A stretch of DNA of 64,000 nt. It comes from Candidatus Aegiribacteria sp. (GTDB taxonomy: Bacteria > Fermentibacterota > Fermentibacteria > Fermentibacterales > JCC-6). The position numbers and the translations under genes are program-made. The notes beneath the pieces are model-generated. The model worked only from the letters and a program-made list of their open reading frames with translations, made no database searches and was not told the origin of the DNA. The stretch lies in assembly GCA_030620995.1 (NCBI GenBank), contig JAUXIK010000004.1:18447-82446 (forward strand), read 5' to 3'. Position 1 is the first letter of the stretch; each line of letters starts with the position of its first letter. Below are positions 10,751-60,538 of the stretch, piece by piece.

Positions 10751-10805
10751 CCCAAAACCACTCATATGTGGTGTGGTCGAGTTTAGCAAGAAAGGAAAAT
10801 TCAAC

Positions 10806-26340: not shown

Positions 26341-27520
26341 TCAGGCAGGAGTGTATACTGATGCCATCAAAGTACCAGAAGCCGGAATTATCACTGCGGA
26401 AACCAGTGTCGGAATTGACAAATCTGGCATGTGCATCAGGCAAGCTGCTTGATAACCATATTATATCCATATATGGAGATAGTAAAACGATGCGGGCAAA
26501 GACTCTAGGGTGTTGATATGCCAGAAAGGCCAGCACATGACCATTATCTGACACAGATTCTGACGTGAATTGAACTGGCATTTCAGAAACAGCTCGGGAA
26601 TCGTTTATGCTAAGGTACTTATCAAGTTTGATAATATCATCGGTTAGTGATATTGATCGGGCGCCAATATTTTCACCCCTGAAGTAGCAGCTTAAAATTA
26701 TAACTGAATCTGATTCACTGATTATAGGATCATTTACGCTTTCATCAAAATCGAATCTTGCGATTTGAGTACCATCATCAGTGCTGATAATCTGAAGTTT
26801 ATACAAATCCAGAACAGTAATAAAGGTATCATCATGAGATAACGTGAAGTTTCTTGTATGGATTATTCGTTCATTATCAGGTTCGAATAATTCCCTGTTC
26901 CATAGAAGATTCCCCTGCATATCGTATGCGCGCAGGCTATCGTAAGTGGTTGAATAGATACGGTCACCCGCATTAGATAGGCCTACAAAATGACCCCAGC
27001 TGAAGTTGTCCCTGGACAGAATGCAGTTGAAATCGGAATCGTACATCCTCAGACAGGTGGATTGTTTCACAAGCACCGTTCCATCGTTGGTTACACGGAT
27101 GAGAGGATTCCCGGGTAACTCCATTTCACTTGAGAACAGAGGAATTGATTTGACCGTGTTCTCAGCAAGATCGAAGAGGATAAGCTTCTCATCAAAATAG
27201 CAGTATCCGAGCAGATACTGACAATCAGGAGAAAAAGTCAATCTATAAATATCACCGGAATAGGGAATGCTGTTTACTACAGTATCACCCTCAAGTAGAA
27301 GAATGTACTCCTTGTCAACAAGAACAGTATGCCACTCAAAACCTTCCTCCGATTCAACACCGTATACAGTTCCCAGCTGCCCGTATACCGGATCAATACG
27401 ATCAAGAACATTGTAGCTCCATTCCTCAACGATGCGGATATCAGGTGAGGTCCAGCTTGATTCAGAGGTAATCGCAGGTGGGATAACAAGCATGATCATG
27501 CTGATGATATTGACAAGCAT
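26327..27520 (-). CDS. Secreted hypothetical protein, beta-propeller-like
   Basis: Signal peptide and beta-rich repeats; overlaps the upstream gene by 14 nt, so co-transcription is likely. Confidence 0.45.
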   Translation of the reverse strand: MLVNIISMIMLVIPPAITSESSWTSPDIRIVEEWSYNVLDRIDPVYGQLGTVYGVESEEGFEWHTVLVDKEYILLLEGDTVVNSIPYSGDIYRLTFSPDCQYLLGYCYFDEKLILFDLAENTVKSIPLFSSEMELPGNPLIRVTNDGTVLVKQSTCLRMYDSDFNCILSRDNFSWGHFVGLSNAGDRIYSTTYDSLRAYDMQGNLLWNRELFEPDNERIIHTRNFTLSHDDTFITVLDLYKLQIISTDDGTQIARFDFDESVNDPIISESDSVIILSCYFRGENIGARSISLTDDIIKLDKYLSINDSRAVSEMPVQFTSESVSDNGHVLAFLAYQHPRVFARIVLLSPYMDIIWLSSSLPDAHARFVNSDTGFRSDNSGFWYFDGISIHSCLIEER

Positions 27521-27742
27521 ATTTATCCTTCTTTCACGATATCAATAACTGGTGAAAATCAATTTCCTTATTGGAATATGTAATGATACAAAACTATCTA
27601 ATGCATGATAATGAACCCTATGTAAAATAATAAGGGGGGGGTAAAGCATGTCAATAACTCATTTAATTAATACTGCTAAAGGAACATTGATATTCAGAAA
27701 CCATACCCGAGGTATAGTGGCCAAATGAACCATGTCAGGAGG

Positions 27743-27783
27743 TGATTCCGGTGCGTTTGGAAATCAAGTTTTCAACTGATTAC
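27743..27783. repeat. 41-bp direct repeat copy B (TGATTCCGGTGCGTTTGGAAATCAAGTTTTCAACTGATTAC)
   Basis: See copy A; preceded by AGGAGGTG. Confidence 0.55.
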
Positions 27784-27919
27784 TGATAAGAAAATTAACT
27801 GATTCTCTTCTTCTTTTTCCTCTTCTTGCGCAAGTTCAGCAGGATCAGCTATCTCTTCAAGATTATCCTGATCGAATTCCTGACCGGTTTATTCGGATAT
27901 TTCCCGGTGTTCTCGCCTT

Positions 27920-29137
27920 TTATATCTCCTCTATCAACACCGAGTAACTGACGGTACCTCCGCTGAATACGCTGAGATAATAAGTTCCGGCAACTGCATC
28001 ATCAGGAAGACCGAGTTCACAGGTAACTCCCGGAGCCACATCCCACTCGGTATGGATTTCATCCTGATCTGGATCGAAAAGCCCCACGTTCAGTCCTGCT
28101 CCGTCAGCATCCGGAGTAACCATGAAGGTCAGGTTATGGCCTTCAGCAACTTCAACGCTGTACCAGTCTTCTTCGTCATAATCACCGATAATACCACTGA
28201 TTGTCTGTCCTGTTTCCAGTGCAACAGCGTAAACAGCTCTGTCTCCGGCATCATCACCGCTCCCTGCGTCATCCTGAAGAACGGCATTAACTGTCAGACT
28301 GTACGTTCCTGTGCCTCCTTTGAAGACACTGATGTAATAGATTCCTCCCGATGAACTGTTCATTATCATCGACCTTGTTAATGTCACACCTGCGGAAATG
28401 TCCCATTCCGTCCAGATATCATCGACTTCAGTATCAAGGAATGCGATATTTGCGCCTTCTGAATCATTTCCTGGAGCAAATGATATTTCAAGAATGCTGC
28501 CGGATGGAACCTCAAAGGAATACCAGTCGGATTCATCCAGATCACCTATAATGCCTCCCACTGGCTCTCCAAGTGTGATCTCAATCGCATCCGGAGCCCT
28601 TCCGCCGGCATCAGCACCTGAAATTCCATCGTTCTGCATTACCTTTGAAAGCTCAAGTGTGTAACCGCCAGGGCTTCCCTGGAATACATGCACGTAATAA
28701 TCACCGGAAAAATCCTCTGGCGTCATATAGCTGAATTCCTTGCTGACAGGCGGCTTTACATCCCATTCTGTCCACATGTCGTCCAGTTCGTCATCAAGTA
28801 TTCCAACATTAATACATTCAGCATCGTTCGAAGGAGTAAAAGATACGGTGAAAGTTTCTCCGCCATTAACGCTGAATACATACCAGTCATCCGTTTCTTC
28901 CAGCTCGAGTTCTCCTTCTGTAACGCCTTCACCCAGCACAAACGCATCAGCCGCGGTGTTGTTCGTACCTTCCGGGGTCTCAGCAGGAGTTTCAGCGGAT
29001 TCTCCCTGCTCCTCAATTTCTCCTTCGGTCTCCCCGGCGGGTTCACCCTGTTCCTCAGGTTCTCCCCCGCCGCAGGCCATTACAAGAAGTACGACCATTC
29101 CAGAGAATATCAGCGCCGTCCATAAAACGTGTTTCAT
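27920..29137 (-). CDS. Lipoprotein with an acidic linker and three tandem PPC (pre-peptidase C-terminal)-like domains
   Basis: Lipobox (LVMACGG) and an E/G/P-rich linker. Three repeats of about 100 aa each carry D-DWY-F/V...TEWDV/I. Confidence 0.55.
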   Translation of the reverse strand: MKHVLWTALIFSGMVVLLVMACGGGEPEEQGEPAGETEGEIEEQGESAETPAETPEGTNNTAADAFVLGEGVTEGELELEETDDWYVFSVNGGETFTVSFTPSNDAECINVGILDDELDDMWTEWDVKPPVSKEFSYMTPEDFSGDYYVHVFQGSPGGYTLELSKVMQNDGISGADAGGRAPDAIEITLGEPVGGIIGDLDESDWYSFEVPSGSILEISFAPGNDSEGANIAFLDTEVDDIWTEWDISAGVTLTRSMIMNSSSGGIYYISVFKGGTGTYSLTVNAVLQDDAGSGDDAGDRAVYAVALETGQTISGIIGDYDEEDWYSVEVAEGHNLTFMVTPDADGAGLNVGLFDPDQDEIHTEWDVAPGVTCELGLPDDAVAGTYYLSVFSGGTVSYSVLIEEI

Positions 29138-45297: not shown

Positions 45298-46923
45298 TTG
45301 AAAGGAGCAATTTTTGCTATGAAGAATTCGAGATGGATTATACCGCTGATCATGCTTACAGCAGTAATCCTTGCAACCTCTTGCGGAGATGATGAAACTC
45401 CGACCGGACCGGGCACATATCCTACAGCGTCAATCCTCAGCGCATCGACAGGAGCAAGTAATTCAGTATCCACTTCCTGGACCATGTGTCCTGATGATAA
45501 TTTTTCCGAATACAGCCTTTACAGGTCCCTGACTGAAGGGATTTCCGCCAATCCGCCGGACAGCCCTGTAAGAGCCGCCAGCAATGCGGCGGATACAACC
45601 TTTACAGATACAGGCCTGGAGTGGAGCACGGACTACTTTTACGCTGTCCGGACAAAGAATACCGACAATCTGTACTCCTGGAGTAACGAAGTATCAGTGA
45701 CCACTCCTGACTCCGGCAGTACCGGTGACTATCTGACCTGCTACCAGATCCAGGGACAGCAGTCATCCTCACCGTATGTTGACCAGATCGTTTCCGTAAC
45801 AGGAATTGTAACTACAGGCGGGGACGAACTCTACTATTCTGCGGGTCCTGTCGCGGTGCTGAGTGATCCTGATGGAGGTCCCTGGACGGGACTGGTTCTC
45901 TACGGTGACGATATCACTTCTCTTGCCAGGGGTGACAGTATACTTATCACCGGTACCGTTCAGGAGTACTACGGTCTGACTGAACTGGGTAACATTTCCT
46001 CTGTTGAGATTGTTTCTACCGGGAACGAGGTGCCACCAGCCACTGCGGTTTCCACTGGGGACATATCCAATTCTACTGATCCAGAGCAGTACGAATCCGT
46101 TCTTTGCACTATCAGCGATGCGATTGTAACCGAAGTCCAGGGATACGGCCAGTTCCTTGCCGATGACGGCTCAGGCGAATGCATTGTGGACGACATGGGC
46201 ACTTATTCGTACAGCCCTGCTGTTGGTGATACGATCATCACCGGAACCGGGATACTATGGTACTCCTGGGACGAATGGAAACTCGAACCCAGGGATGACA
46301 ACGATCTTATTACTTCCGGAGGCGGAGGCGGTGATACTTACACATGCTACGAGATCCAGGGACAGCAGTCGGAATCACCCTTTGATGGACAGACTGTCAG
46401 TGTCACCGGGATCATAACCGCTGACCCTGATGATTATACCGCTACATCTTCAACCTACTCCGCCATGGCAGATGCCGCCGGAGGACCCTGGAGCGGTCTG
46501 CTACTATATGGCGACGATCTCGAAGGGCTTCAGAGAGGTGACAGTGTAACGGTAACCGGAGTTGTGGATGAGTACTACGAAATGACTGAGGTTAAGTACC
46601 CGATATCCTACGTAGTACACTCGAGCGGACATGCTCTTCCGGATCCAATTCAGTTCTCTACCGGTGATCTCTCACCTTCTCTTGACCTTGAGCAATGGGA
46701 ATCCGTATTTGTGACCGTATCCGATGTCGATGTAACACAGATTGGTCTACCTTATTACACATGGGCTGTCGATGACGGAAGCGGAGAGTGCTACGCCGGC
46801 ACAATGGGTGACTTCACCTACGATCCGGCTGTAGGCGATAACCTGTCAAGCATGACAGGATTGCTCTGGTACTCCTACGATTTCAAGATTCAACCCAGGG
46901 ACGACAACGATATAGTCCAATAA
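45298..46923 (+). CDS. Lipoprotein with an FN3-like N-terminal region and two tandem domains of about 195 aa
   Basis: Lipobox (ILATSCG). The two internal repeats both begin D(Y/T)(L/Y)TCY(Q/E)IQGQQS and end KL/IEPRDDNDLI/IQPRDDNDIV. Confidence 0.5.
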   Translation: MKGAIFAMKNSRWIIPLIMLTAVILATSCGDDETPTGPGTYPTASILSASTGASNSVSTSWTMCPDDNFSEYSLYRSLTEGISANPPDSPVRAASNAADTTFTDTGLEWSTDYFYAVRTKNTDNLYSWSNEVSVTTPDSGSTGDYLTCYQIQGQQSSSPYVDQIVSVTGIVTTGGDELYYSAGPVAVLSDPDGGPWTGLVLYGDDITSLARGDSILITGTVQEYYGLTELGNISSVEIVSTGNEVPPATAVSTGDISNSTDPEQYESVLCTISDAIVTEVQGYGQFLADDGSGECIVDDMGTYSYSPAVGDTIITGTGILWYSWDEWKLEPRDDNDLITSGGGGGDTYTCYEIQGQQSESPFDGQTVSVTGIITADPDDYTATSSTYSAMADAAGGPWSGLLLYGDDLEGLQRGDSVTVTGVVDEYYEMTEVKYPISYVVHSSGHALPDPIQFSTGDLSPSLDLEQWESVFVTVSDVDVTQIGLPYYTWAVDDGSGECYAGTMGDFTYDPAVGDNLSSMTGLLWYSYDFKIQPRDDNDIVQ

Positions 46924-48079: not shown

Positions 48080-49552
48080 TTAATCGCCGCTTTCTTCGGA
48101 AATGCCCCAGCTGACCGTGTTTACACCTACCTGCAACAAGTATCTCAAATTGTCTTTTCTAACAGCCGGAGGGAGGAATTTCGCTCCAAACGGCGCCAGG
48201 CAGAGAAGTTCTGCGGGATTCGGAAGTTCATCAACCAAAAGGTCTATATGAGGTATTGGTACCGGATCAACCGGATATACAGCCATTCTCGACAGCAGCA
48301 GTTCTCTGAGCTTATCCCATGGAGTTCCCTCACAGCTGAATCCGGCTGCCATTTTGTGCCCTCCCGCGTTGGTGAACACATCTCCCATACTCATAAGAAA
48401 ACCAGCCATGTTCCAATCCCCGAATGAACGGGCTTCTCCAACGAGTTTTCCGCCCTCCCGCGGGGATACTATCAGTGTTCCTCTCCGGGTCACTCTGCTT
48501 AATTTGCTGGCGAGAACCCCCCCCATGCCATCAGGGATTGTATCCATGTATACAAGCGTCATTCCGTATGCGGACGCCTGGTCATCTCTGTTCTTGAGAG
48601 CCTGCGAGAATATGTCTGACAGCTGATACGCTCTGTACCGGCTTTCCTTTTTCATGAGTTTCCAGATAGACTTGCAGCTCCTGTAGTCTTCATCCATCAT
48701 GAAATCAAGCATGATCCCGATTCCTGAGCCCTTCCCTTTCCCGACAGTTGATGTGATCTCGTGCCGGATCATGGATCCCGTCCAGGCCGATTCTCTTGCG
48801 GGCCACCGTTCGGCAAGTATCTTCATGCCGCCTTTGAGCAGATCAATATCGATTTTTCCGAACTCCTCAAGGAGATACCTGTTCCAGCCCAGCAGAGGTA
48901 CTCGGTCCGAAACAGTTCCGAGAGCAACAGCTGTCAGAAGTTCAGGTTCGTTTTCCCACCCGGGGTAGATTGATATCAGGGCGGCGTACAGGACTCCGCA
49001 TCCGGCCAGATAAGTGGCGGGTGGGCCGGTTCTCTGTGGATTGATCATTCCATGGGCTTCAGGCAGAGGGGGGTTGAGCATGTGATGGTCGGTGATAACC
49101 ACCCTTGCGCCCTGATCCAGAGCCCAGCGGACTCCTGCTACAGAAGAACATCCGTAATCAACTGTAAGCAGCAGATCACCTGACAGAAGAGAGCCTTCCA
49201 TCAGCCTGGGAATAAGACCGTAATCATCTGTCGAACGTTCAGGCATGATTGGAATGACTTCAAAACCTTCTCCCTCAAGAATTCTGATTCCAACATAGAG
49301 CCCGGTAATGCCATCCATGTCATCGTGCCCATAGAGGACAATTTTGCCTCCACGATCTTTCAGATCATTGAGTTCACGGCGGAGAATATCAATATCGGGA
49401 ATACCGTCCGGCCATTCCGGCTTATCGGGCAGCCACTCTTTAATGGGATCGGGTAATTCGGGAAAGCGATGGAGAAGAATAGAATATGCCAGAGGCGTAA
49501 CCTTACACCTGCCCCGCTTCGTGTCGGGACCTTCTTCAATGGAACGCATCAA
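48080..49552 (-). CDS. DHH-family phosphoesterase (RecJ/NrnA-like; DHH + DHHA1)
   Basis: [11 protein letters not shown] and GGHKMAAG motifs. Confidence 0.7.
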
Positions 49553-49707: not shown

Positions 49708-51978
49708 CTATGAGCTATCCAGTACAGCGCGGAGAGTTCCGGCCAGATTTCGGATATCAATCGGTTTTCCAATTATGGTACTGACGTTCTTCTTAAGCAC
49801 ATTCTCAGAAATAGTATTCCCGTAACCTGTTAAAAGTACTATCGGGAACTCCGGATGGGTTTTTCTTATCTCCTCTGCCAGATCCAATCCTGTCATTTTC
49901 GGCATTGTCAGATCGGTAAGAATCAGGTCATATTTGTCAGGCTGCTTGCAAAATGCTTCCAGCGCATCGACACTGCTGCCTCTGGCGTCAACAGTATAAC
50001 CAAGCTGATTCAGAATTTTTCTTAACAGCTCCAGAACTGACGTCTCATCATCAATAAGCAGAATTGTTTCATGTCCTCTCGGAAATGAATCTATCTGTTT
50101 CCGTTGAGGTTTCGCAATCTCCTTTGTGACAGGAAGATATACATGAAAAGCAGCCCCTTTTCCCGGTTCGCTGGATACAGTTATCTCTCCGCCATTACTC
50201 TGGATAATGCCGTGTACTACTGAAAGCCCCAGACCGCTGCCTTTTTCAGACTTCTTTGTGGTGAAGAAAGGTTCGAAAATATGATCCTTTATTTCTTCAG
50301 TCATTCCCGGCCCAGTGTCACTCACAGTCAGCCGGACATATTCTCCCTCCTGAAGGATCGGGTGTGATCTCGAATCATCACCGTCATCGGAATGAAAAGC
50401 CTTCAATTCAAAAGTGATCTGTCCTCCTCCATCTGCCATTGCCTGATAAGCATTGGTACACAGATTAACAATGACCTCATGTATCTGTGATGAATCAGCC
50501 ATGACCATCGGGCAGTTCACATTTATTTCCTTCAGTATCTCAATCGTTGACGGAATGATTGGCCGCAGTAATTTCAGGGCTTCTTCCACTACCTGCTGCA
50601 GACGAATCGGTTTTTTCTCCATTTCCATCTGCTGGCTGAATGTCAGGATCTGCCTGACCAGATCCTTCGCGCGGTTGGCTCCGCTCAGAATCTCTTCCAG
50701 ATCCTCGGTGATAGGATCATGAGAGGACAATCTGGACAGCACCATATCGGTATAGCCGATAATGGGTGTAAGGATATTGTTGAAATCATGAGCAATACCA
50801 CCCGCAAGAATCCCAATTGTTTCCAGTTTCTCCGACCGGAACAGGCGCTTCTGCATTTCAGCTTTTTCCCGTTCCTCTTTTTTCAGTTCGGTAATGTCCC
50901 GATGGCTTGCTACGTGCGCAATCGTCTTCCCTTTATCATCCGTTACCCTGGAGGCGGAGACCAATACAGGGAAAAGCTCTCCGTTCTTTCTCCTGGCAAC
51001 CAGCTCTCCCGACCAGCTGCCTTCTATTGCCTTTTTCAGTGTCGGTTTCTGTTCATCAGGATAAATGGAAGATATCTCTTTTCCCATCAGCTCTTCCCTC
51101 GAATAGCCGAACATTCCGGCAAATGCTTTATTCACATATGTAATTCTCCCTTTGAGATCGCCCATGACAAGGCCGTCAGGCGAACTCTCGACCGACTGAG
51201 AGAACTGCTTCAATTCCCTCTTCGCTTTTTTCCGCTCGGTGATATCCCTTATCGTGGTAACCCTGAACGCCTGATCCTTCTTCTTTATATTTCTTGCCTC
51301 GATCTCTATCGGGAACAGCGTTCCATCCTTTTTTCTTCCCGATATTTCAAATGGTTCGGCAATATGCTCGACTATCCGTCTTTCTATCATTGAATGGTAT
51401 TCCGCGGGTACACACTGTTCAATTACGTTCCTCCCGATTATCTCTTCTCTTGAATAGTCGAACATTTTCAGAAGTGATTCATTTACATCAATTGCCACGC
51501 CTTTTTCATGAATCAGGATACCTTCAATAGTGAGATTCGAAAGATTTCTGTATCTCTCTTCGCTCGCTCTCAGTTTTTTCTCAGCCATCTTCTTCTCGGT
51601 AATGTCGTAAAATGCCATGGCAAATAATCCGCTGTCCGGTGAAAACACATTGAAGGAATGGTATCTGTCTGTCGGGGAAAAGTAAGATTCAAAGGATTCG
51701 GATTTTCCTGTTTCCGCTACTCTGGCGCAGACATCGAGGTATGGAGCTTCTTCGGCTCCATACAGTCCTGAAGCTTTTTCACCGATTACGCTTAAGCGTT
51801 TGATGCCAAATATCTTTTCATACTCCGGATTAACGTCGATTATTCGGTAGTCAACAGCTTTGCCCCTGTCATCGTATACGATTTCGTTCAGGCACACCGC
51901 TTCGCCAATCAATTCAAAGAAGGATTGGAAGCTCCACTGATCTTTACTTCGACCGGGCTTATCTTTGTCTATTATCAT
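49708..51978 (-). CDS. Hybrid sensor histidine kinase / response regulator with multiple PAS domains
   Basis: Repeated PAS blocks, a HisKA H-box (HDFNNILTPIIGY), a HATPase_c G-boxes and a C-terminal receiver domain (LLIDDE...DLTMP). Confidence 0.85.
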   Translation of the reverse strand: MIIDKDKPGRSKDQWSFQSFFELIGEAVCLNEIVYDDRGKAVDYRIIDVNPEYEKIFGIKRLSVIGEKASGLYGAEEAPYLDVCARVAETGKSESFESYFSPTDRYHSFNVFSPDSGLFAMAFYDITEKKMAEKKLRASEERYRNLSNLTIEGILIHEKGVAIDVNESLLKMFDYSREEIIGRNVIEQCVPAEYHSMIERRIVEHIAEPFEISGRKKDGTLFPIEIEARNIKKKDQAFRVTTIRDITERKKAKRELKQFSQSVESSPDGLVMGDLKGRITYVNKAFAGMFGYSREELMGKEISSIYPDEQKPTLKKAIEGSWSGELVARRKNGELFPVLVSASRVTDDKGKTIAHVASHRDITELKKEEREKAEMQKRLFRSEKLETIGILAGGIAHDFNNILTPIIGYTDMVLSRLSSHDPITEDLEEILSGANRAKDLVRQILTFSQQMEMEKKPIRLQQVVEEALKLLRPIIPSTIEILKEINVNCPMVMADSSQIHEVIVNLCTNAYQAMADGGGQITFELKAFHSDDGDDSRSHPILQEGEYVRLTVSDTGPGMTEEIKDHIFEPFFTTKKSEKGSGLGLSVVHGIIQSNGGEITVSSEPGKGAAFHVYLPVTKEIAKPQRKQIDSFPRGHETILLIDDETSVLELLRKILNQLGYTVDARGSSVDALEAFCKQPDKYDLILTDLTMPKMTGLDLAEEIRKTHPEFPIVLLTGYGNTISENVLKKNVSTIIGKPIDIRNLAGTLRAVLDSS

Positions 51979-52387: not shown

Positions 52388-53476
52388 ATGAAGATTCAAT
52401 CATTACTTTGCAGATTCGTCACCCTGTTCCTTCTGCTGCTCTCCGCTTCCCCCGCTGAAACAGCCTTTGAACCCGTTTCGGAATCTCCCTGGCTTCAGGG
52501 CGGAATAGCCTCCAGTCTCTTCCCGACAACACCGCTGGTCATAATAGTTAACCCGGCCTGTCTCGGGCTTCTTGAAGGACACGGAGTCGCGGCTTCAGCA
52601 TCACGTCCCTTTGGATTGCACAGCCTTGACCGAACGGCAATAGCAGGAGACTGGATGTTCAGGAGATTCGCGGTGGGCGCTGCTCTCTCTCTGTCAGGCG
52701 ATGGAAGCTATACCGAGGAAACCGCTGTCGCCGCTGCTGCTTTTCGAATCATGAACGGCGTCGTTCTCGGAACGGATATCTCCATCAGAAATCTCCAGAT
52801 AAGCGGTTACGGCCGGGCAACAGGTGTCTCGGCGGACATCGGCGCGGTCTGGTCTCCCACTTCCGGTGTTTACTCTACAGCTCTTTTCCGCAGTGTCATT
52901 AGAAGCGATCTCGGTGATTCCGGCGATCCGTCTTCTCCCCGATCACTTGAGCTCGGTCTCGGCGTCGTCCCGGTAGACAGAGTATCCCTGGCCGTAGGAG
53001 CCGGCAGGCAGGAAGGTCTCGATACCGAATTCAGTTTTCATACCGCTTTTTCCCCACAATCCAGTATCAGCCTCGGGGCGGGAATGATTACGAACCCCGC
53101 AAGATTCTGGGCAGCTCTGTCCATTTCGGTATCCCCGATCAATGTGGAATACGGTTACGGAGAGCATTCAACTCTTCCTGGAACCCATTCAGTTGCCCTG
53201 TGCTGGGGGAACTGCGCATCCGATCCACCCGCGCTGAATCTTTCCGACAGCGAGGAAGAATCGGAGGCTTCCGCACCTGAATTCCCCCTGAATGTCAACA
53301 CGGCAACCGAGGAGGAATTTTTATTGATTCCGGGGATAGGACCAGGCCGAGCTTCAGCTATAGCCGCCTGGATGCGGCAGAACGGACCTGTCTCCTCAAT
53401 AGAAGAGCTTGATGATATTCCCGGCGTAGGTCCTTCACTTATGGAAGTGTTCAGAGAGTTTCTGGTGGCTGAATGA
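52388..53476 (+). CDS. ComEA-like helix-hairpin-helix DNA-binding domain fused to an N-terminal G/A/S-rich beta-barrel-like domain
   Basis: Signal peptide. The C-terminal about 70 aa (LNVNTATEEEFLLIPGIGPGRASAIAAWMRQNGPVSSIEELDDIPGVGPSLMEVF) form a ComEA-type HhH pair. The N-terminal about 250 aa resemble the 293-aa barrel protein at 57906. Confidence 0.6.
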   Translation: MKIQSLLCRFVTLFLLLLSASPAETAFEPVSESPWLQGGIASSLFPTTPLVIIVNPACLGLLEGHGVAASASRPFGLHSLDRTAIAGDWMFRRFAVGAALSLSGDGSYTEETAVAAAAFRIMNGVVLGTDISIRNLQISGYGRATGVSADIGAVWSPTSGVYSTALFRSVIRSDLGDSGDPSSPRSLELGLGVVPVDRVSLAVGAGRQEGLDTEFSFHTAFSPQSSISLGAGMITNPARFWAALSISVSPINVEYGYGEHSTLPGTHSVALCWGNCASDPPALNLSDSEEESEASAPEFPLNVNTATEEEFLLIPGIGPGRASAIAAWMRQNGPVSSIEELDDIPGVGPSLMEVFREFLVAE

Positions 53477-54975
53477 AAATACCTCCTGTACTTATTCTGC
53501 TCCTGTTTCTGTCCAGTATGGTTTCCGCTATCGAAGGAGATGTAAGGGTTCGGCTTCAACGAAGATTCCCGGCGTGCCGCGGTACTATCGAGAATTACTA
53601 CGCTGGTGACGAATTCGGTTTCTATGACAGGTTCAGGTTCCGCAGCGGCACGATGCGCTTTTCGCTTCTTCTGGACAAGGCCAGAGGCGAGGAATGGGTT
53701 GATATCATCTCCGGTGGTGTAATATGGACTCCTCCGAACGGTAACCTTCAGTCCGTCTCGGCGGGATGGCTCAAGGTCGATCTGGGAAGCGGGATGGTTA
53801 TTTCCTGCCCCGGCAGATGGTCCGACTTGAGTGAACTGGCTCTCTATAAACCTCCGGGCATCAGGAACCGTATAGAACCCGCCACATCCGCGTGGGGCTG
53901 CAGAGGAGACCCTCTGATCGGAGCCGGGGCATTAGCCCGGTTCGGAGACCTTGATGTGTCATTGCTGGCGGCTTATTCCCTATTGGACTCCATTGGTGAC
54001 GGACATCACAGAACCGCATCGGAAATCGCCGGAAAAGCCGCCATCCGGGAAACTCTCGGAGCCATCCGCGTTGGAGGGGAAGAATGGGGGGTTACACTTG
54101 CCGGAGCTATTGAGCATGACAGCGATGAACAGTACTGGGTCCGCATGGGAACCGACTGGGATCTTGATTTCAACACTTTCCGATTCACCGGAGAAACAGC
54201 CGCAGGAGTAGATTCCGGAGGAGTATCAGCAGCGTTCTGGGCAGCTCCCACACAGAATTTCGGTAACTTCAGGCACATGCTCATGCTGCTGCGGAACCCG
54301 TCGGATTTCCCGGATGCCAGAACATCACCCCCGATAGGCCGCGAATGTGATATCGGCTTCTGTTACGGGTTCAGGTGGAATGTTTTCTCAAGAACCGTTC
54401 TGAAAGCAGGCGCTGGAACATATTTCAATAACGATGAGCATCTGCTTCGCGGTTCGACCGAGATTCAATACAGATTCCCCTGGAACATGGAAGCGACAAT
54501 GGGCGGTCGAACACGAACAGAAACTGCTGAATCAGGGTGGAGAGTCTGGACAGGCAATAGCTGGCAGCCTCTCGAAAAATTCAATATCAGGACAAAACTC
54601 TCGTTCACCGGATGGAGTTCCGACGAGGATTCCACTGAAAACGGAACCGGCATTGAACTCAGGATCAGATACTTTCCTGTCAGCCTGTTATCAGTCGGTC
54701 TCGGCGGAGCCGCTTTTTCCACTGATGGATATAACTCCAGGGTGTACGCGGCAGAGGCCTTCTTCCCCGGTGAGTTCGGCTCCACTGCGCTATGGGACAG
54801 GGGCTTCATGTTCCATATGAGCATTTCCGCTGAAATCAGTGAAGATCTCTTCCTCAGAGCAAGGTTCCTGAGAAAGATCATTGAGGACGCGGCTGTTCTT
54901 GGCTCCGGCTGGGAAGAAACCGAAGGCGACTCCAGAACCGAATTTGGTTTTCAGCTTGACTGCTCGCTTCAGTAG
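53473..54975 (+). CDS. Secreted beta-rich protein (possible outer-membrane barrel), co-transcribed with the ComEA-domain gene
   Basis: Signal peptide, a 4-nt overlap with the upstream gene (ATGA), and amphipathic beta patterns. Confidence 0.4.
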   Translation: MKIPPVLILLLFLSSMVSAIEGDVRVRLQRRFPACRGTIENYYAGDEFGFYDRFRFRSGTMRFSLLLDKARGEEWVDIISGGVIWTPPNGNLQSVSAGWLKVDLGSGMVISCPGRWSDLSELALYKPPGIRNRIEPATSAWGCRGDPLIGAGALARFGDLDVSLLAAYSLLDSIGDGHHRTASEIAGKAAIRETLGAIRVGGEEWGVTLAGAIEHDSDEQYWVRMGTDWDLDFNTFRFTGETAAGVDSGGVSAAFWAAPTQNFGNFRHMLMLLRNPSDFPDARTSPPIGRECDIGFCYGFRWNVFSRTVLKAGAGTYFNNDEHLLRGSTEIQYRFPWNMEATMGGRTRTETAESGWRVWTGNSWQPLEKFNIRTKLSFTGWSSDEDSTENGTGIELRIRYFPVSLLSVGLGGAAFSTDGYNSRVYAAEAFFPGEFGSTALWDRGFMFHMSISAEISEDLFLRARFLRKIIEDAAVLGSGWEETEGDSRTEFGFQLDCSLQ

Positions 54976-55013
54976 TTCGCATATTTCAGCAACATTCTGA
55001 GAGGTGATAAACT

Positions 55014-55493
55014 TTGAGACCGTCCTGGGACGAATACTTTCTGAAACTCGCCATGCTTGCTTCCGAACGTGCCACATGTCCGAGAATGCACTGCGGCTGT
55101 GTGCTGGTGAAAGACAGGTATGTGCTTTCAACAGGGTACAACGGTTCTCTCCCCGGACTGGAGCACTGCGAGGATGTGGGATGTCTCATTGTCGATAACC
55201 ACTGCGTCAGAACAAATCATGCCGAGATGAACGCGATTGCCCAGGCTGCGAGGCACGGCGTTCCACTGAACGGCGCCACCGCTTACATAACGAACATGCC
55301 ATGCACCACCTGCGCGAAAGCCCTGCTCGCTGCCGGTATTTCACGTGTTGTTATCTTCTCCGACTACCACGGATCGCTTGCCGAGAAGTTCCTCGACGAA
55401 TCAGATGTTCCGATTGACCGGCTGCCGATGCCCGAACTGGAAATTAACTACGATCTCGAAGGATACTCCTCCGCGAAAAAGTTCGAAAGCTGA
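55014..55493 (+). CDS. comEB: dCMP deaminase (ComEB-type cytidine/deoxycytidylate deaminase)
   Basis: HAEMNAI and PCTTCA zinc-binding motifs; 159 aa. Confidence 0.85.
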   Translation: MRPSWDEYFLKLAMLASERATCPRMHCGCVLVKDRYVLSTGYNGSLPGLEHCEDVGCLIVDNHCVRTNHAEMNAIAQAARHGVPLNGATAYITNMPCTTCAKALLAAGISRVVIFSDYHGSLAEKFLDESDVPIDRLPMPELEINYDLEGYSSAKKFES

Positions 55494-55754
55494 CCGTTCG
55501 GATTCGGTCGTCTCCGGACTGTCTTGGACCAGTTACAGTTATCACTGGATACTGTTGCGCCAGACAATCAATATAAGGCTGAATATCTCTAATAATCATG
55601 ATGTTCTCCTGTAAGTTTCAAAGTTGTACTTTGAATGTGTATACAATTGCTTGCATTCTTCGTTGTCAATTGCTGGAAATCCGTTATTGATTTCTTAAAA
55701 GTCAATTCTCTGTATACATGTTTGCCTATTTTCGTAACTGTACTGAAATGCAAT

Positions 55755-55960
55755 TTTCTTACAGTATAGAATAAGATATTCAGAAATTTGGATTATCTTA
55801 CAGTATGGAATAAGTTTGCACCCAGAATAATCGAAGCATTAACCGAATCTTGTATTGTATCAGCCAATCCCTGATTCTTGTTGACATGACATTTCTTACA
55901 GTATAGAATAAGATATTCAAAAGGTGGTGATATTCTTGCATTATAGAAGAAGTTTGTATC
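55755..55960. repeat. Tandem duplication (about 138 bp) of the promoter and 5' end of the DUF4143 ATPase gene; 27-bp repeat copies at 55755, 55794, 55893 and 55933
   Basis: R1 and R3 are identical (TTCTTACAGTATAGAATAAGATATTCA), and R2 and R4 are related. A sigma70-like TTGACA (55881-55886), then 15-16 nt, then TATAGAAT lies in the downstream unit. Confidence 0.55.
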
Positions 55961-57129
55961 TCGACAGAATCAGACCATTTATCGGATCTCCTGTTGTGAA
56001 AGTCATAACAGGTATGCGCCGGGTTGGGAAAAGCGTCTTCCTGGGTCAGGTTGTCGATCTGGTGCGATTGATCTCTCCGGGAACGAAAATTCTGTCAGTC
56101 AATATGGAACTGATGGAAAATTGGCAATACCGGGATGGCATTCTTCTTCACGGAATGATTACTGATCAGGGAACCGATATGGCTTTGTTCCTTGATGAGG
56201 TACAGGACATTAGAGGTTGGGAGGAGATCGTCTCTTCTCTTCTCGCCAGAGGCGGAGTTGATCTCTACATTACAGGATCAAATGCACAGATGCTTTCATC
56301 GGAGCTGGCAACGAAAATTGCGGGAAGATATGTGGAATTCCAGATATATCCGCTTGGTCTCTCGGAGTTCATTAAATTCCGTGGGGATGAAGCCGTCTCA
56401 CTGGAAGAGGAATTCCGTTTATACCTTAGATTTGGCGGGATGCCGGCTCTTCATTCGATGGAGCTTTCATGGGAAGTTGCATACCAGTACCTTCAATCTG
56501 TCAGAGATACCGTTCTCCTGAACGATGTAATCACTCGAAACAGCATCAGAAATATTCCGCTTCTCGAATCAGTATTTACCTTTCTTGCTGACAACATAGG
56601 TTCTCTTTTCTCTGCAAAACGTATTGCAGATTATCTTGGATCGCTGGGCAGGAGTACATCAGTTAACACTGTCATCGACTTCATTCATTATCTGTCTGAT
56701 GCCTTCGCTTTTCATTACGTAAGAAGATATGATCTCAGGGGTAAGAAACAGCTTGAATACACCGGCAAAGCGTTTTTAAATGACCTTGCCTTCCGGCATG
56801 CACTTTTCGGTTACAGGGAAGGTGATATTTCCGGTTTCCTCGAGAATATCATCTACATGGAACTGAGGCGAAGAGGTTATTCCATTTTCATTGGCTGGCT
56901 GGACGGAAAAGAGATTGACTTCATAGCCCACAGGGGAGATGAGACTATTTACATTCAGGTTGCGTATCTTCTTGCATCTGAGGAGACGATCGAAAGGGAA
57001 TTTCTCCCCCTCATGAACACTCAGGATAATTGCCCCAAGATGGTGCTTTCCATGGACAGAGACTTTCCATCAAGGAAAGGCATCCCTCAGATATATATAC
57101 CGGAGTTCCTCACAGGCGCTCAATCCTGA
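55924..57129 (+). CDS. AAA+ ATPase of the AAA_14 + DUF4143 family
   Basis: Walker A-like GMRRVGKS, Walker B LFLDEVQ, and a C-terminal DUF4143-like region; GTG start after AAAGG. Confidence 0.7.
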   Translation: MVIFLHYRRSLYLDRIRPFIGSPVVKVITGMRRVGKSVFLGQVVDLVRLISPGTKILSVNMELMENWQYRDGILLHGMITDQGTDMALFLDEVQDIRGWEEIVSSLLARGGVDLYITGSNAQMLSSELATKIAGRYVEFQIYPLGLSEFIKFRGDEAVSLEEEFRLYLRFGGMPALHSMELSWEVAYQYLQSVRDTVLLNDVITRNSIRNIPLLESVFTFLADNIGSLFSAKRIADYLGSLGRSTSVNTVIDFIHYLSDAFAFHYVRRYDLRGKKQLEYTGKAFLNDLAFRHALFGYREGDISGFLENIIYMELRRRGYSIFIGWLDGKEIDFIAHRGDETIYIQVAYLLASEETIEREFLPLMNTQDNCPKMVLSMDRDFPSRKGIPQIYIPEFLTGAQS

Positions 57130-57152
57130 ACCCGCAAGGTGAGATTTGCGGG

Positions 57153-57560
57153 TTATAGTTCAAATAGAATTTTCAGCGAACGGTTTATTCTCTGTACTTC
57201 GTCAGGTGACAGTTTCCCGCGGATTCTGATCATTCTGTGACTATGATCGATTGGACGCGTCTGCAGGCAGTCCGCTATGGATTTCTTCGAAAGGCCATTA
57301 TCAGGTGAAGGAAGAATTTCAACATTAGTCATTATCCGTGCTTTTTTTGCGCTCCATTCAGTAACTGGAACAACCTGAATAACCGGAACTCTTTCATTGT
57401 AAACATCATTCGTTACAATTACACACGGTCTGATTTTCCCCATCTCCGGACATTTATCCGGGAACCGCAAATGTAGTGACAAGCTGTTTTCTGAACCAAG
57501 AGTCGGATCAAGATTTACATCAATCACCATACCTCTTTTCAACACAGTCATTCCGGCCAT
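57153..57560 (-). CDS. Type II toxin, PemK/MazF-family endoribonuclease
   Basis: KRGMVIDVNLDPTLGSE...IRPCVIVT matches the MazF/PemK fold; overlaps the upstream small gene by 13 nt. Confidence 0.7.
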   Translation of the reverse strand: MAGMTVLKRGMVIDVNLDPTLGSENSLSLHLRFPDKCPEMGKIRPCVIVTNDVYNERVPVIQVVPVTEWSAKKARIMTNVEILPSPDNGLSKKSIADCLQTRPIDHSHRMIRIRGKLSPDEVQRINRSLKILFEL

Positions 57561-57781
57561 CCGGCTACTGTTGATTCAGTCAATTCTTTCAGATCATCAT
57601 CCAGTGAATAAATTTCAGAATACAGATCAGCTGATCTTCTCAGGCTTTCAAGTTCCATAGCTTTCTTTAACAGGTTAATAGCCTCTCTGACTACAGAGCT
57701 TTTATCCTTGAATCCATACACTTCGAATTCACTAAGGAATTGAGCCTGTGCTTCTTCAATACTGAATTTTGCCTGCAACAT
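57548..57781 (-). CDS. Cognate antitoxin (77 aa)
   Basis: Small ORF overlapping the toxin start; a helical, acidic C-terminus. Confidence 0.5.
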   Translation of the reverse strand: MLQAKFSIEEAQAQFLSEFEVYGFKDKSSVVREAINLLKKAMELESLRRSADLYSEIYSLDDDLKELTESTVAGWPE

Positions 57782-57905
57782 ACAGAAACCTTTCTGTCCC
57801 TACTTCTAGCCCCCAATTTACGACCCTATAATAAGTACTATGATATTCAAAGTCAATATGAACCCGGAATAACCCGCCTGCATGTGCAGTTTTACGTTCT
57901 ATCGA

Positions 57906-58787
57906 TTAAAAAGAAACAGATAGACCGGCCAGAACAGGCCAGCTCAGCTCGTCCCTCTGAGATATGGCGGCTTCGATTGTATATGAACCACCCGACTCAT
58001 AGGTATACCGCAGGCCCGCGAAGAACCCGCTTATCTCATCCTCACCGGGTGAATATTGATAACCCGCCGAACATCCATACTCAGAGTAATTAATGCTCAT
58101 TCCGCATCCAAATGCGTCGGAAGTTGAGAATCCTATCTTCCCGCCGGCAAAACCGGTCATAATCGATGATATGCGATAGCTCGCTCCTGCGGATATTTCG
58201 GTTGGCATATCCTTACGAATGCCCTGCCATGAAGGAGCCTGCCCGACACCTGTAATAACGATACCGGCAAGAAGCCCACCGTCAGGTTTAAAAGCCAGCC
58301 CCGCATTAGCGTTAATACCGGTTCCTCCCTCAGCCGCCACATTCTCCCATGACAGACCTGCTGAAACACCCGCATCAATCCAACCCGCAAGCGGGAAGGA
58401 CACTCCGGCCATTGCGCAGCCTGTTGAATAGGAATACTCGCCGGTAACAGCACCGGACTCATCTCTTCCGATGAGCCCTCCTCTGCCCAGATAAACAAGA
58501 CCGGTTCCGACTTCAATGTCAGATCCGGCAGAGAAAGCACCTGCGATTGATACGGCTGTAGTTTCCAGGTTCCATCGGCCTCCTGCCGCGCTGAACCCGG
58601 TTTTGCAAAGAGCCGGATTCGACAGCATGGATCCCGGACCTGTACTGATCGCACAGCCGGCGGGTCCGAGCATCATCGTCGATGGAAATCCTGGAGATGA
58701 CAGAACCAGAAGATCAGCTGTCCCCGTTTCGCCTGCGATAGCAAGAGAAGCCGCTATCAGCGGGATACAGCAAAGTATTCGGTACAT
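57906..58787 (-). CDS. Gly/Ala/Ser-rich outer-membrane beta-barrel-like protein
   Basis: Signal peptide, an NPA motif near the N-terminus, alternating beta patterns and a C-terminal aromatic residue (SVSF). Confidence 0.4.
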   Translation of the reverse strand: MYRILCCIPLIAASLAIAGETGTADLLVLSSPGFPSTMMLGPAGCAISTGPGSMLSNPALCKTGFSAAGGRWNLETTAVSIAGAFSAGSDIEVGTGLVYLGRGGLIGRDESGAVTGEYSYSTGCAMAGVSFPLAGWIDAGVSAGLSWENVAAEGGTGINANAGLAFKPDGGLLAGIVITGVGQAPSWQGIRKDMPTEISAGASYRISSIMTGFAGGKIGFSTSDAFGCGMSINYSEYGCSAGYQYSPGEDEISGFFAGLRYTYESGGSYTIEAAISQRDELSWPVLAGLSVSF

Positions 58788-59917
58788 GTCTCACCTCCCG
58801 AAGTTCTGAAGACAACAGCGTAAAGACCCGGAGAGGCCATTCCGTCAACGGTCGAAAGATTCCAGGTATAAGAACCGGACTCAGCATTTACATCAAGGAT
58901 CTTCTCTCCATTAAGATTGAAAACCATTATCGATGAGGACTGCCCATCAGTTGCGTCCCACGCGAAAGTAACCACTGAGGTGGCGGGGCTTGGATACACG
59001 GCGAATTCATCAATGGAAGCAGGACCTCCTCCACCCGTGGGCGGCATGGAGTCGTAATAAACTCCCTGTCCATCCGAGGATATATAGAACGTACCGTCAA
59101 GATCGGTTCTGTAGATGGTTATATCTCTGTCGTTCAATCTGTTAATAACTTCCGCGTGAGGATGACCGTAAGGATTTCCAGCACCGACGCAGATGGCGGC
59201 AATCGAAGGATTGATCTCAACCAGCCATTGCGTGCAGGTGGATGTATATGATCCGTGATGCCCCACCTTCAGCACATCTGCTGATATTTCATCAATTTCT
59301 CCTGTTGAGAGCGCTCCAAGAACAACGTCCTCTCCGCCGTCCGTCTCGAGATCACCGGTAAAAATGAATGAAACTTCATCGTATGTAAGCCGGATAACAA
59401 TGGAAGAGTTGTTTATGTTGGATGGAGACAGGGGATCGACAGGATGAATCACCTCAACCGTCAGTTCAGGCCCCCAGTTCAGAATATCTCCTCTCCGGGG
59501 AGTTACGAATTCAGAACCGTTGTTCATAATTGCCTCAAGATAGGTTTCGTATGTCCAGGTGCCTCCATAGGGCCAGCCCGAATCGTATGCTGTCACTACC
59601 GGAAGTGTGTTATAGACGGATATCAATCCGCCGACATGATCGGCATGGAGGTGAGTGCCTACAACTCCTTCCAGGTATGTAACCCCAAGGCTGTCCAGAA
59701 GAGGAAGTACTCTGTCTTCTCCGCAGTCCCACACAGGAGGATAGGTGCTCATATCACCCCCGTCTATCACATAATGCCTGCCGCCGGGTGTGCAGACAAT
59801 CATGGCGTCGCCGGAATAATCTTCGAATGTGGTGTCTATGAAAAATACTACAAGAGGGTCAGCCGCGAAAACGCAGTGAACCAGAAGAATAATCAACAGA
59901 ACAAAAACTGTTTTCAA
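58757..59917 (-). CDS. Secreted MBL-fold metallo-hydrolase (ComEC/Rec2-type beta-lactamase-like domain) with a T9SS C-terminal sorting domain
   Basis: HLHADHVGG, a later GHHGS motif, and a T9SS C-terminal domain (FAVYPSPATSVVTF...GLYAVVF). Confidence 0.65.
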   Translation of the reverse strand: MKTVFVLLIILLVHCVFAADPLVVFFIDTTFEDYSGDAMIVCTPGGRHYVIDGGDMSTYPPVWDCGEDRVLPLLDSLGVTYLEGVVGTHLHADHVGGLISVYNTLPVVTAYDSGWPYGGTWTYETYLEAIMNNGSEFVTPRRGDILNWGPELTVEVIHPVDPLSPSNINNSSIVIRLTYDEVSFIFTGDLETDGGEDVVLGALSTGEIDEISADVLKVGHHGSYTSTCTQWLVEINPSIAAICVGAGNPYGHPHAEVINRLNDRDITIYRTDLDGTFYISSDGQGVYYDSMPPTGGGGPASIDEFAVYPSPATSVVTFAWDATDGQSSSIMVFNLNGEKILDVNAESGSYTWNLSTVDGMASPGLYAVVFRTSGGETCTEYFAVSR

Positions 59918-59932
59918 GCGGACTATTTCAGC

Positions 59933-60538
59933 CTACTGAACGAAGGCTTTTATGAATGCCCAGCTGTTCTGCACGAAAGAATTCTCAAAAACACTGTTCA
60001 GTGAGCCTGGTGTGCCGAAATCACCATTCCCGAAAGTCATCGTGGATTTACCCCATGTTGAAGATGTGCTGGAGATCCATCCCGGGTTGATTCGCTCGCA
60101 GGAGTAACCCGCTGTTACAGGCCAGCTGCCGGTGTAGATTATTTCGTCAATAATTTCCCTTGAAGAGCTGCGCAGTGTCAGCCTGCCCGTATCGTTGATT
60201 GTGAAATCGCTGTATACATAGTCCGGAACAAGACCGCCGTTCATGGATTCATCTCCGCATGAGCAAAGGACGTAGTAACTATCCGGCGGCAGCAGATAAG
60301 TGGACATCGTTACTTCCTGCCCGAGAGCGTTTGACAGAGTCCATCCGGAAAGGTTGACCCAGTCTCCCGATCTGTTGTACAGTTCAACCCATTCGCCGTC
60401 TGTTTCCGTATAGGAAGCGAGGGGATGTGCCATGAATTCATTAATAACAACGACACCGCTGGACAGTGTTCCTCCGCCACTGCTACCGGGCACAAACGGT
60501 GTAATCTGAGCAATCAACAGAATAGAAAGCAATATCAT
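59933..60538 (-). CDS. Lamin-tail-domain (LTD) secreted protein
   Basis: VVINEFMAHP...EWVELYN matches the LTD signature. Confidence 0.6.
   Translation of the reverse strand: MILLSILLIAQITPFVPGSSGGGTLSSGVVVINEFMAHPLASYTETDGEWVELYNRSGDWVNLSGWTLSNALGQEVTMSTYLLPPDSYYVLCSCGDESMNGGLVPDYVYSDFTINDTGRLTLRSSSREIIDEIIYTGSWPVTAGYSCERINPGWISSTSSTWGKSTMTFGNGDFGTPGSLNSVFENSFVQNSWAFIKAFVQ

Follow-up and report, generated by a model that had tools for sequence, protein, structure and literature searches.

Protein A and its predicted barrel

The 64,000-nucleotide stretch analyzed here (the window; Candidatus Aegiribacteria sp., contig JAUXIK010000004.1, positions 18,447 to 82,446) is chromosomal, and the housekeeping genes around the locus under study include those for UvrA, DnaK/DnaJ, MetRS, and SAM synthetase. 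The locus encodes three putative outer-membrane proteins. Protein A (52388..53476, + strand, 362 amino acids) is the product of a listed open reading frame (ORF) with a signal peptide, a FadL/PorV-like 14-strand barrel, an acidic linker, and a ComEA-type helix-hairpin-helix (HhH) domain. Protein C (53473..54975, + strand, 500 amino acids) is a large all-beta barrel whose start overlaps the stop codon of A by 4 nucleotides (ATGA). Protein B (57906..58787, - strand, 293 amino acids) is a stand-alone PorQ/PorV-like barrel, as predicted from sequence. A first-pass annotation had described A as a ComEA HhH domain fused to a barrel-like domain paralogous to B; it correctly located both ORFs and overlooked C.

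The predicted signal peptide of A (amino acids [aa] 1 to 25; 52388..52462, + strand, as are all segments of A) has a hydrophobic core followed by AETA/FEP, from which the cleavage site was placed. A26, F27, and E28 at the mature N terminus are invariant in 33 homologs and open a hatch-like segment (aa 26 to 61; 52463..52570) that, in the AlphaFold2 model computed on the A alignment, forms short helices and no strands before strand 1, with the hatch itself at residues 30 to 61. This segment contains the NPA motif (aa 55 to 57; 52550..52558), in which N55 is nearly invariant and P56 invariant among the same homologs. The barrel that follows (aa 62 to 274; 52571..53209) is confidently modeled (pLDDT 87 for the model), and DSSP assigns to it 14 strands within residues 66 to 274, connected by odd-numbered loops of 9, 3, 3, 13, 5, 4, and 5 residues and by even-numbered turns of 2 to 3 residues. 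An acidic linker (aa 275 to 298; 53210..53281) of low confidence (pLDDT <50 at residues 287 to 294) and with a net charge of -7 (family average, -4.5) leads to the ComEA-type (HhH)2 domain (aa 299 to 362; 53282..53473), which was assigned by family matches.

Foldseek comparison of the model with the PDB returned FadL, TodX, CymD, and PorV as top folds, the highest TM-scores being those of PorV chains (8gl6_F, TMq 0.59; 6h3i_F, TMq 0.57). The FadL entries among the matches include the Phe3, N33A, P34A, and delta-NPA mutants. In FadL, the NPA motif presumably occupies residues 33 to 35, close to its position at approximately residues 30 to 32 of mature A, and an AFE N terminus with NPA some 30 residues further on resembles the hatch features of FadL. 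The barrel of A is predicted to be plugged by its own N-terminal hatch. Fourteen strands, a hatch, and an NPA motif characterize the FadL/OMPP1/PorV-PorQ superfamily, and all three are found in A. The model therefore bears out the barrel with a FadL/PorV-type hatch that had been suspected for its N-terminal domain. The compositional observations held as well: Gly, Ala, and Ser make up 36% of the A barrel and 42% of mature B, versus 21% of ten housekeeping proteins of the window, and NPA, noted earlier at 30 to 40 residues past the signal peptide, lies approximately 30 (A55-57) and 37 (B57-59) residues after the predicted cleavage and is conserved in both families. Sequence searches of the PDB with the A-barrel, B, and C profiles found no relatives. 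Every one of the 71 full-length homologs of A is labeled Fermentibacteria, Aegiribacteria, or Sabulitectum, and the close homologs of B and C likewise bear labels from within these groups.

The C-terminal domain of A scored 42.5 bits against PF12836 (HHH_3; cutoff, 27) and 44 bits against PF00633 (cutoff, 24), in agreement with its first assignment to ComEA. It also matched TIGR00426 (40.2 bits) and TIGR01259 (46.9 bits; E 2.5e-12), under the respective cutoffs of 53.1 and 152 bits; both models recognize 33/33 members of the A family, with a best E value of 1.4e-19. Its best PDB sequence matches are the solved ComEA structures 8dss and 8dfk (phmmer E 2.6e-12 to 8dss). The two GIG hairpins do not vary among the 33 homologs, and residue 321, which is Lys in 20 and Arg in 13 of them, aligns with the GIGPAK-motif Lys of ComEA 8dss. 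We identified the latter as Gs K166, Bs K164, and Vc K63, i.e., the best-conserved ComEA residue, whose replacement by Ala abolishes DNA binding and transformation (PMC9747964). The conserved basic residue that follows the first GIG hairpin of ComEA and is needed for DNA binding is therefore present in A. Judging from these sequence features, the HhH domain of A may bind DNA. In sum, the model and the family matches describe A as a ComEA-type HhH domain fused to a FadL/PorV-type outer-membrane barrel.

Protein C and the pairing of the two barrels

Sequence comparison of protein C with Pfam, NCBIfam, and the PDB gave no match. Its AlphaFold2 model (pLDDT 91; pTM 0.84) is all beta, with approximately 24 to 26 strands, and Foldseek matched it to generic large barrels only, i.e., MtrB and the PapC/FimD usher pores at a TM of ∼0.5 and TonB-dependent transporters at ∼0.45. 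C does not answer to the description of a TonB-dependent DNA importer (plug, carboxypeptidase-regulatory domain, and DUF5689 partner), and no DUF5689 gene was found in the 64-kb window. The model thus portrays C as an outer-membrane barrel of a family without a described member. The top conserved motifs of this family (GxHRTxSE, TDGYNSRVY, FPGEFG, and GSGWEETEG) sit in long nonstrand segments of the model, outside the strands, which suggests that they form a plug, a gate, or a binding surface.

A and C are adjacent in all Fermentibacteria loci examined (L001 to L003, L094, and L095), down to 41% identity of A, and in the hit tables at least 18 A and C homologs could be matched by the identical size of their longest contig. 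A search with the A-barrel profile against 1.84 billion cluster representatives yielded 3082 relatives at an E value of ≤1e-3 and 1009 at ≤1e-10, most of them stand-alone barrels of 265 to 300 aa, the close ones matching PorV_fam at E 1e-9 to 1e-24. Among the best 148 cluster representatives, HhH motifs were found in 23/23 proteins extended at the C terminus by 55 residues or more, which come from several lineages; all nine long relatives scanned have one or two HHH_3 domains, and some of these proteins carry ComEA labels at JGI. In the literature, we found no description of a fusion between ComEA and a PorV, FadL, or other outer-membrane beta-barrel, nor of the C family. The architecture, called unusual in the first-pass annotation, is accordingly undescribed as far as we found but not rare. 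By sequence, the closest relatives of the A barrel are a large set of ∼275-aa stand-alone barrels that are paired with a C-homologous barrel.

Evidence for this pairing came from several lineages. The gene directly after A-like small barrels encodes a C homolog in L008 (E 8e-30), L010 (1.5e-23), and L009 (1.6e-13). The hidden Markov model (HMM) behind these E values was built from Fermentibacteria alone and provides independent evidence; a broad C HMM was seeded with L006, L008, L009, and L010, and its matches there are circular. The large barrels of L008 to L010 carry an N-terminal ComEA-type HhH domain of their own (TIGR01259 E 4.2e-13 in L008). In metagenome-assembled genomes (MAGs) of Bacteroidota and Ignavibacteriaceae (L014 to L018), a small barrel that lacks HhH precedes a 661- to 670-aa protein that combines HhH and barrel. 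C-like genes of Bacteroidota-type lineages share ∼20% identity with C of the window. An alignment of this C type retrieved 80 metagenome loci (L096 to L175), all of which have an N-terminal HhH domain on the large barrel; among the 60 loci that extend far enough upstream, 59 have a small-barrel gene immediately before the large one, in the same orientation. Most of a set of 80 genome loci contained more distant PorV-like barrels without a C-like neighbor (Latescibacterota, Elusimicrobiota, and others) and were uninformative on the pair.

The HhH domain is thus carried by the small barrel only (in Fermentibacteria), by the large one only, or by both, and no adjacent pair was seen in which both partners lack it. 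Movement of a domain between two always-adjacent genes is a classic signature of two subunits of one complex, and since the domain is located at the C terminus of one barrel and at the N terminus of the other, the usual rule of topology assigns it to one and the same compartment. A and C may therefore contact each other in the outer membrane.

Three further observations concern the surroundings and the spread of these genes. porD is a frequent divergent neighbor of the pair (L008, L011, L014, L016, L017, and most of L096 to L175), and the immediate upstream neighbor of the metagenome pairs is typically a gene for ∼291 to 300 aa on the opposite strand. In a Bacteroidota MAG (L004/L005, 9348..10004), a 200- to 218-aa protein without family match precedes an A-like fusion, with a 4-nucleotide overlap. 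Finally, MAGs labeled Clostridia or Actinomycetota (L019 to L024, L063, L083, and L093) encode 515- to 540-aa proteins with a PorV-like barrel region; these carriers are either mislabeled diderm bins or evidence of the family in unexpected phyla.

Gene neighborhood and the stand-alone barrel B

The conserved gene order in Fermentibacteria is RecJ-like (divergent), A, C, dCMP deaminase, and LTD gene (convergent), to which the sub-lineage of the window adds a metallo-beta-lactamase (MBL) nuclease gene and B between the LTD gene and the deaminase. The RecJ-like DHH/DHHA1 protein (48080..49552, - strand) was assigned by TIGR00644 recJ (E 2.4e-50, under cutoff), by the Pfam DHH and DHHA1 domains, and by synteny. 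The dCMP/cytidine deaminase is ComEB-like (55014..55493, + strand; PF00383, E 1e-25) and lies directly 3′ of C in L001, L002, L003, L094, and L095. The LTD protein, which has a signal peptide (59933..60538, - strand; PF00932, E 5.6e-13), is encoded by the first gene of an LTD-nuclease-B transcription unit, and its gene is kept beside the locus in L001, L002, L094, and L095. The nuclease candidate (58757..59917, - strand; PF00753, HLHADH motif) is a secreted, ComEC-type MBL-fold protein with a C-terminal sorting domain of type A for type IX secretion systems (T9SS; PF18962; TIGR04183, 26.1 bits versus a cutoff of 23). It matches TIGR00361 ComEC_Rec2 (E 8.4e-34) at model positions 451 to 663, i.e., the C-terminal MBL part. 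Upstream, a very acidic secreted OB-fold/fn3 protein (45298..46923, + strand; pI 4.1) resembles the DNA-binding N-terminal part of the ExeM/NucH nucleases (NF033681, E 5.8e-18 over profile positions 37 to 123, under cutoff; Pfam tRNA_anti-like and fn3) and has a counterpart in L001 and L095.

Other genes of the region are less constant. A 756-aa PAS/histidine kinase/receiver hybrid (49708..51978) is encoded between the RecJ-like gene and A; no kinase gene occurs at this interval in L001, L003, L094, and L095, and L094 and L095 have a different, ∼300-aa gene there. The product of the latter (L094, 8947..9924, - strand; L095, 8981..9895, - strand) is a secreted protein of 304 to 325 aa, divergent from A and without family match, with a charged and apparently helical C-terminal tail; on comparison, it proved to be neither a B homolog nor PorD-like. 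The block 55924..57781, in the interval between the deaminase and B, contains an AAA_14/DUF4143 ATPase (55924..57129, + strand; Pfam), a PemK/MazF toxin (57153..57560, - strand; Pfam), and a small ORF upstream of the toxin gene (57548..57781, - strand). It is absent from the syntenic L001 and L002 and looks like a recent insertion of a defense or addiction cassette. A scan for promoters and terminators gave chance-level results. The interval 23512..29137 of the window encodes another T9SS cargo (Por_Secre_tail, 942 aa) and, after it, a 397-aa protein without family match; the gene for an extremely acidic 405-aa PPC-domain protein (D+E, 20%; K+R, 2%) is nearby. A 581-aa acidic ORF without Pfam match (10659..12404) shares ∼90 nucleotides with the end of the methylmalonyl-CoA mutase gene, and the start codon of this ORF may be miscalled.

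A comparable set of genes occurs in an unrelated lineage. L006/L007 combine in a single operon a gene for a probable, divergent C-like protein, an MBL gene of the ComEC type whose product matches the MBL nuclease of the window (BLASTP E 2e-18), a gene for a 1445-aa LTD protein, and an A-like fusion; RadC and an OB-fold protein with a faint DUF5689 match are encoded near this operon. The 559-aa protein of L006 was not significant with the Fermentibacteria-only C HMM and matched the Bacteroidota-type alignment in hhalign (77%, E 2e-5), which makes it a probable C-like protein at the sequence level. The barrel pair was thus observed together with genes for extracellular DNA processing twice, independently, in the Fermentibacteria cluster and in the L006/L007 operon.

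Protein B has its NPA motif at aa 57 to 59 (58611..58619), with N57 invariant in 27 homologs. Without a Pfam match, it scored 33.8 bits (E 1.8e-8) against PorQ and 23.7 bits (E 3.1e-5) against PorV_fam, both under the curated NCBIfam cutoffs (220 bits for PorQ, NF033711; 90 bits for PorV_fam, NF033709). Both models match 26/27 B homologs, and PorV_fam matches just 1/33 A homologs (E 0.019). The 57 B homologs found are from Fermentibacteria only. Neither A nor B nor the stand-alone relatives of A (32 to 84 bits) reach the NCBIfam thresholds; by NCBI criteria, and as judged from sequence, they are superfamily relatives rather than PorV/PorQ members.

The paralogy of A and B proposed in the first-pass annotation was retained in part. 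The pairwise alignment suggested there as a check was not significant (best BLASTP E 0.057), and neither family HMM matched the window protein of the other family at an E value of 1e-4. However, profile-profile comparison of the A (33 homologs) and B (27 homologs) families gave 89% probability and an E value of 2.3e-6, with a colinear alignment of ∼190 columns (A39-261/B41-247). The score of 49.9 exceeded those obtained when the B alignment was reversed (16.3) or its columns were shuffled (≤21.7 in 30 shuffles), both of which control for shared composition. In addition, the B-family HMM directly matched a deep-branching A homolog (E 4e-6), and some unrelated PorV-like barrels, e.g., L081, match both family HMMs. 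A lack of BLASTP similarity together with a profile score above the controls therefore indicates that, at the level of sequence, A and B are distant members of the FadL/PorV/PorQ superfamily and not close or recent paralogs.

Their genetic contexts differ as well. The start codon region of B overlaps the 3′ end of the T9SS-sorted nuclease gene by 31 nucleotides, an arrangement that is shared by L001 and L002 and that ties B to the T9SS cargo nuclease, not to A. The association with a sorting-domain protein that marks a T9SS carrier or anchor is thus found for B and not for A. B is absent from the locus in deep-branching Fermentibacteria. It is not a functional twin of A and, by analogy with T9SS carriers, probably carries or anchors the neighboring nuclease.

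Proposed function and competing explanations

An even number of strands normally leaves both termini of an outer-membrane protein in the periplasm. Because A has such a number, with longer loops alternating with 2- to 3-residue turns, and because other lineages carry the same domain at the N terminus of the partner barrel, which is also periplasmic by the usual rule, the model places the HhH domain of A most plausibly in the periplasm rather than on the cell surface.

We give even chances to the reading that A is an outer-membrane-tethered periplasmic DNA receptor that works with C as a DNA conduit. A would then be an outer-membrane-anchored ComEA, made together with C and located side by side with it in the outer membrane; its flexible acidic linker of ∼25 residues would leave the last strand on the periplasmic side and carry the HhH domain. 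C would be the passage for extracellular DNA, and the HhH domain would capture the incoming duplex just below the C channel and block its back-sliding, like soluble ComEA below the PilQ secretin. Soluble ComEA has been shown to prevent DNA back-sliding in Vibrio cholerae (PMC3879209). Outside the cell, DNA would be captured and processed by the LTD and OB-fold proteins and by the nuclease displayed through the T9SS. The presence of a deaminase and a RecJ-like enzyme would fit either the salvage of imported DNA or the comE-operon tradition; ComEB is dispensable for transformation in Bacillus (bioRxiv 10.1101/2020.12.30.424838). Fermentibacteria are diderm, with lipopolysaccharide (PMC5030696). 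The imported DNA could serve transformation or nucleotide salvage, both being compatible with this scheme.

ComEA is a soluble periplasmic protein in Vibrio cholerae and Neisseria and has an N-terminal membrane helix in Bacillus subtilis; its structures include 8dss, 8dfk, and 2duy. A shares with it the atypical double HhH, the key Lys/Arg, and the proposed role of a periplasmic ratchet that binds double-stranded DNA. However, the anchor of A is an N-terminal 14-strand barrel instead of a cleaved signal peptide or an inner-membrane helix, A lacks an oligomerization domain, its HhH domain is acidic, and its gene is translationally coupled to that of a large barrel and not to comEB/comEC. A similar composite picture emerges from OmpA, in which a flexible hinge joins the barrel at the N terminus to a ligand-binding domain in the periplasm at the C terminus, but whose barrel has 8 strands versus the 14 of A, whose periplasmic domain binds peptidoglycan and not DNA, and which is not homologous to A. 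We know of no described PorV, PorQ, or FadL protein with a C-terminal DNA-binding domain. With PorV/PorQ and FadL/TodX, the window proteins share the 14-strand barrel with hatch and NPA (A) and the cotranscription with a T9SS type A cargo (B). Unlike PorV, which binds its cargo via extracellular loops (PMC10994853), A has very short loops, and its partner C is not SprA/Sov.

The SprA-PorV translocon of the T9SS nevertheless resembles the A-C pair in coupling a small FadL-like barrel to one of far greater size, and PorD is a frequent genomic neighbor of the pair, so that lateral docking of the small barrel on the large one is a natural model. SprA has 36 strands (PMC10994853), versus the approximately 24 to 26 strands of the 500-aa C; no sequence relation or specific fold relation between C and SprA was detected, and the proposed substrate of A-C is DNA, not protein. 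The closest functional precedent, by analogy, is provided by the pilus-independent systems of Bacteroidota, i.e., the natural-transformation genes RA0C_RS04915/04920 of Riemerella anatipestifer with the HhH protein RA0C_RS02645 (PMC8459023), together with the related DNA-utilization locus ddbABCDEF of Bacteroides thetaiotaomicron (PMC12478041). As compared by their descriptions, these systems and ours share a set of components for DNA import in the Fibrobacterota-Chlorobiota-Bacteroidota (FCB) group, namely a barrel in the outer membrane, a DNA-binding protein at the surface, nucleases that are secreted, and an HhH protein in the periplasm; a deaminase theme is also common, and the OB-fold protein beside the L006 operon has its faint DUF5689 match. 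DdbC and RS04915, however, are TonB-dependent-transporter-like and have a carboxypeptidase-regulatory domain, for which C gave no match. RA0C_RS02645 is described as periplasmic, with HhH at residues 236 to 301, and is not reported as a barrel fusion (PMC8459023); judged by this description, the HhH position fits neither the A nor the C type, so that it is probably not an instance of the same fusion. Since the Riemerella genes act in transformation and the related ddb locus in utilization, one type of machinery can serve both transformation and nutrition (PMC8459023; PMC12478041).

Several points weigh against a role of the pair in DNA uptake. The HhH domain of the A family is acidic (net charge, -2 to -8; pI about 4.4), whereas canonical ComEA domains are basic, as are the distant fusions P0278 and P0210 (pI 9.8). 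The secreted proteins of the window are equally acidic (pI 4.1 to 4.5; K+R, 2 to 5%; window median pI, 5.3). Because the whole secreted proteome shares it, the acidity looks like a lineage trait, and the objection is weakened, but it still stands as a caveat. The lysines of Bacillus ComEA HhH2 (K193 and K197 equivalents) are not conserved in the A family, and HhH_3-like folds also occur in non-DNA-binding proteins such as PsbU and GspK, which are weak matches to A. In the Bacteroidota/Ignavibacteria-type clade, the T9SS gene porD is the sole recurrent functional neighbor, and no competence or nuclease genes were seen there. L004/L005 have an A-like fusion without a C-like neighbor, which may represent a different partner arrangement. 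The 64-kb window showed no ComEC proper, ComF, or DprA. Finally, Fermentibacteria genomes contain type IV pilus genes, so that a conventional uptake route may coexist (PMC5030696). A broader and more tentative proposal is that pairs of the A+C type constitute a hitherto unrecognized secretin- and pilus-independent outer-membrane DNA translocon, widespread in the FCB group and neighboring candidate phyla, in which the carrier-barrel-on-large-barrel principle of the T9SS runs inward with DNA and HhH on one or both subunits acts as the periplasmic ratchet. We regard this as possible but rather doubtful.

The strongest competitor, which we still consider unlikely, is that the pair is a T9SS accessory, i.e., a PorV-like carrier with a translocon-like barrel, and that HhH has a structural or non-DNA role, as in PsbU/GspK. 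The placement of the A barrel and its stand-alone relatives in the PorV/PorQ superfamily speaks for it, as do the T9SS cargo in the window cluster and the acidity of the Fermentibacteria HhH. So does PorD (NF052317), the product of the divergent upstream gene in L014, L016, and L017 (219 to 230 bits versus a cutoff of 170) and, under the cutoff, in L008 (109 bits); in L014 and L017, a gene for a peptidyl-prolyl isomerase (PPIase) domain lies further upstream. Around the metagenome pairs, 24/99 scanned neighbor genes matched DUF4835 (PorD), approximately one-third of the scanned genes being the immediate upstream neighbor. The extended T9SS translocon includes PorD and PPI (PMC10994853; PMC8754138). 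However, HhH is specifically ComEA-like, keeps the key K/R in 33/33 homologs, and has persisted in very divergent lineages, where one or both partners carry it. Furthermore, two unrelated lineages cluster the pair with ComEC-type nuclease, LTD, OB-fold, and deaminase genes, not with the T9SS core, and adjacency to porD was seen only in one broad clade and is absent at the Fermentibacteria loci. We rate the T9SS-accessory explanation below DNA uptake because a ComEA-like domain is kept throughout and because nuclease and LTD genes cluster with the pair in two lineages; the two explanations are not exclusive of each other.

In the version suggested by the word receptor in the first-pass annotation, A would be a surface-displayed receptor for extracellular DNA, built like an inverse autotransporter. 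The cluster does encode other surface or extracellular DNA-related proteins (LTD, T9SS-sorted nuclease, and OB-fold), the 24-residue disordered linker would be long enough, and intimin/invasin barrels appear far down the list of fold matches. We nonetheless hold this topology to be quite improbable. Fourteen strands and the alternation of loops put the C terminus of the barrel in the periplasm, and the conserved hatch (AFE, NPA) is predicted to occupy the lumen, with no room for a threaded linker. The best folds are FadL/PorV, the 12-strand intimin/invasin barrels rank 36 to 37 with a TMq of ∼0.3, and A lacks the features of an inverse autotransporter. Surface display would also call for a second, different export route in lineages with the domain at the N terminus of the large barrel. 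The last alternative, that A resembles B through a shared Gly/Ala/Ser barrel composition and neighbors C through synteny without functional meaning, accommodates the failed BLASTP and HMM comparisons of A and B but is largely refuted, and in our opinion negligible, given the profile score above shuffled and reversed controls over ∼190 colinear columns, the intermediate barrels that match both HMMs, and an A-C adjacency that spans Fermentibacteria to Bacteroidota-type lineages at ∼20% C identity while HhH moves between the partners.

Passage of DNA across the outer membrane is well understood for the type IV pilus/secretin route only, and a second, TonB-dependent-like route has recently been described in Bacteroidota. 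What is new here is a ComEA that is anchored by a predicted outer-membrane barrel and belongs to a conserved module of two barrels; to our knowledge, no case of ComEA tethered to the outer membrane has been presented before. A new DNA translocon is a stronger claim and a possible one. If A and C function as the proposed receptor and conduit, the DNA ratchet would be placed directly at the channel exit, and the barrel pair, with a ComEA domain always on one or both members, would add to these two a third candidate route, open to testing, for DNA across the outer membrane. Even without DNA uptake, these data define a large uncharacterized barrel family of ∼500 to 670 aa and a PorV-like subfamily (1009 representatives at E <1e-10) with a clear partner and a possible tie to PorD. 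The pair occurs in uncultured lineages that abound in sediments and digesters, habitats in which extracellular DNA is a major source of both nutrients and genes. Collectively, these findings point to the pair as an uncharacterized outer-membrane DNA-handling module in several phyla.

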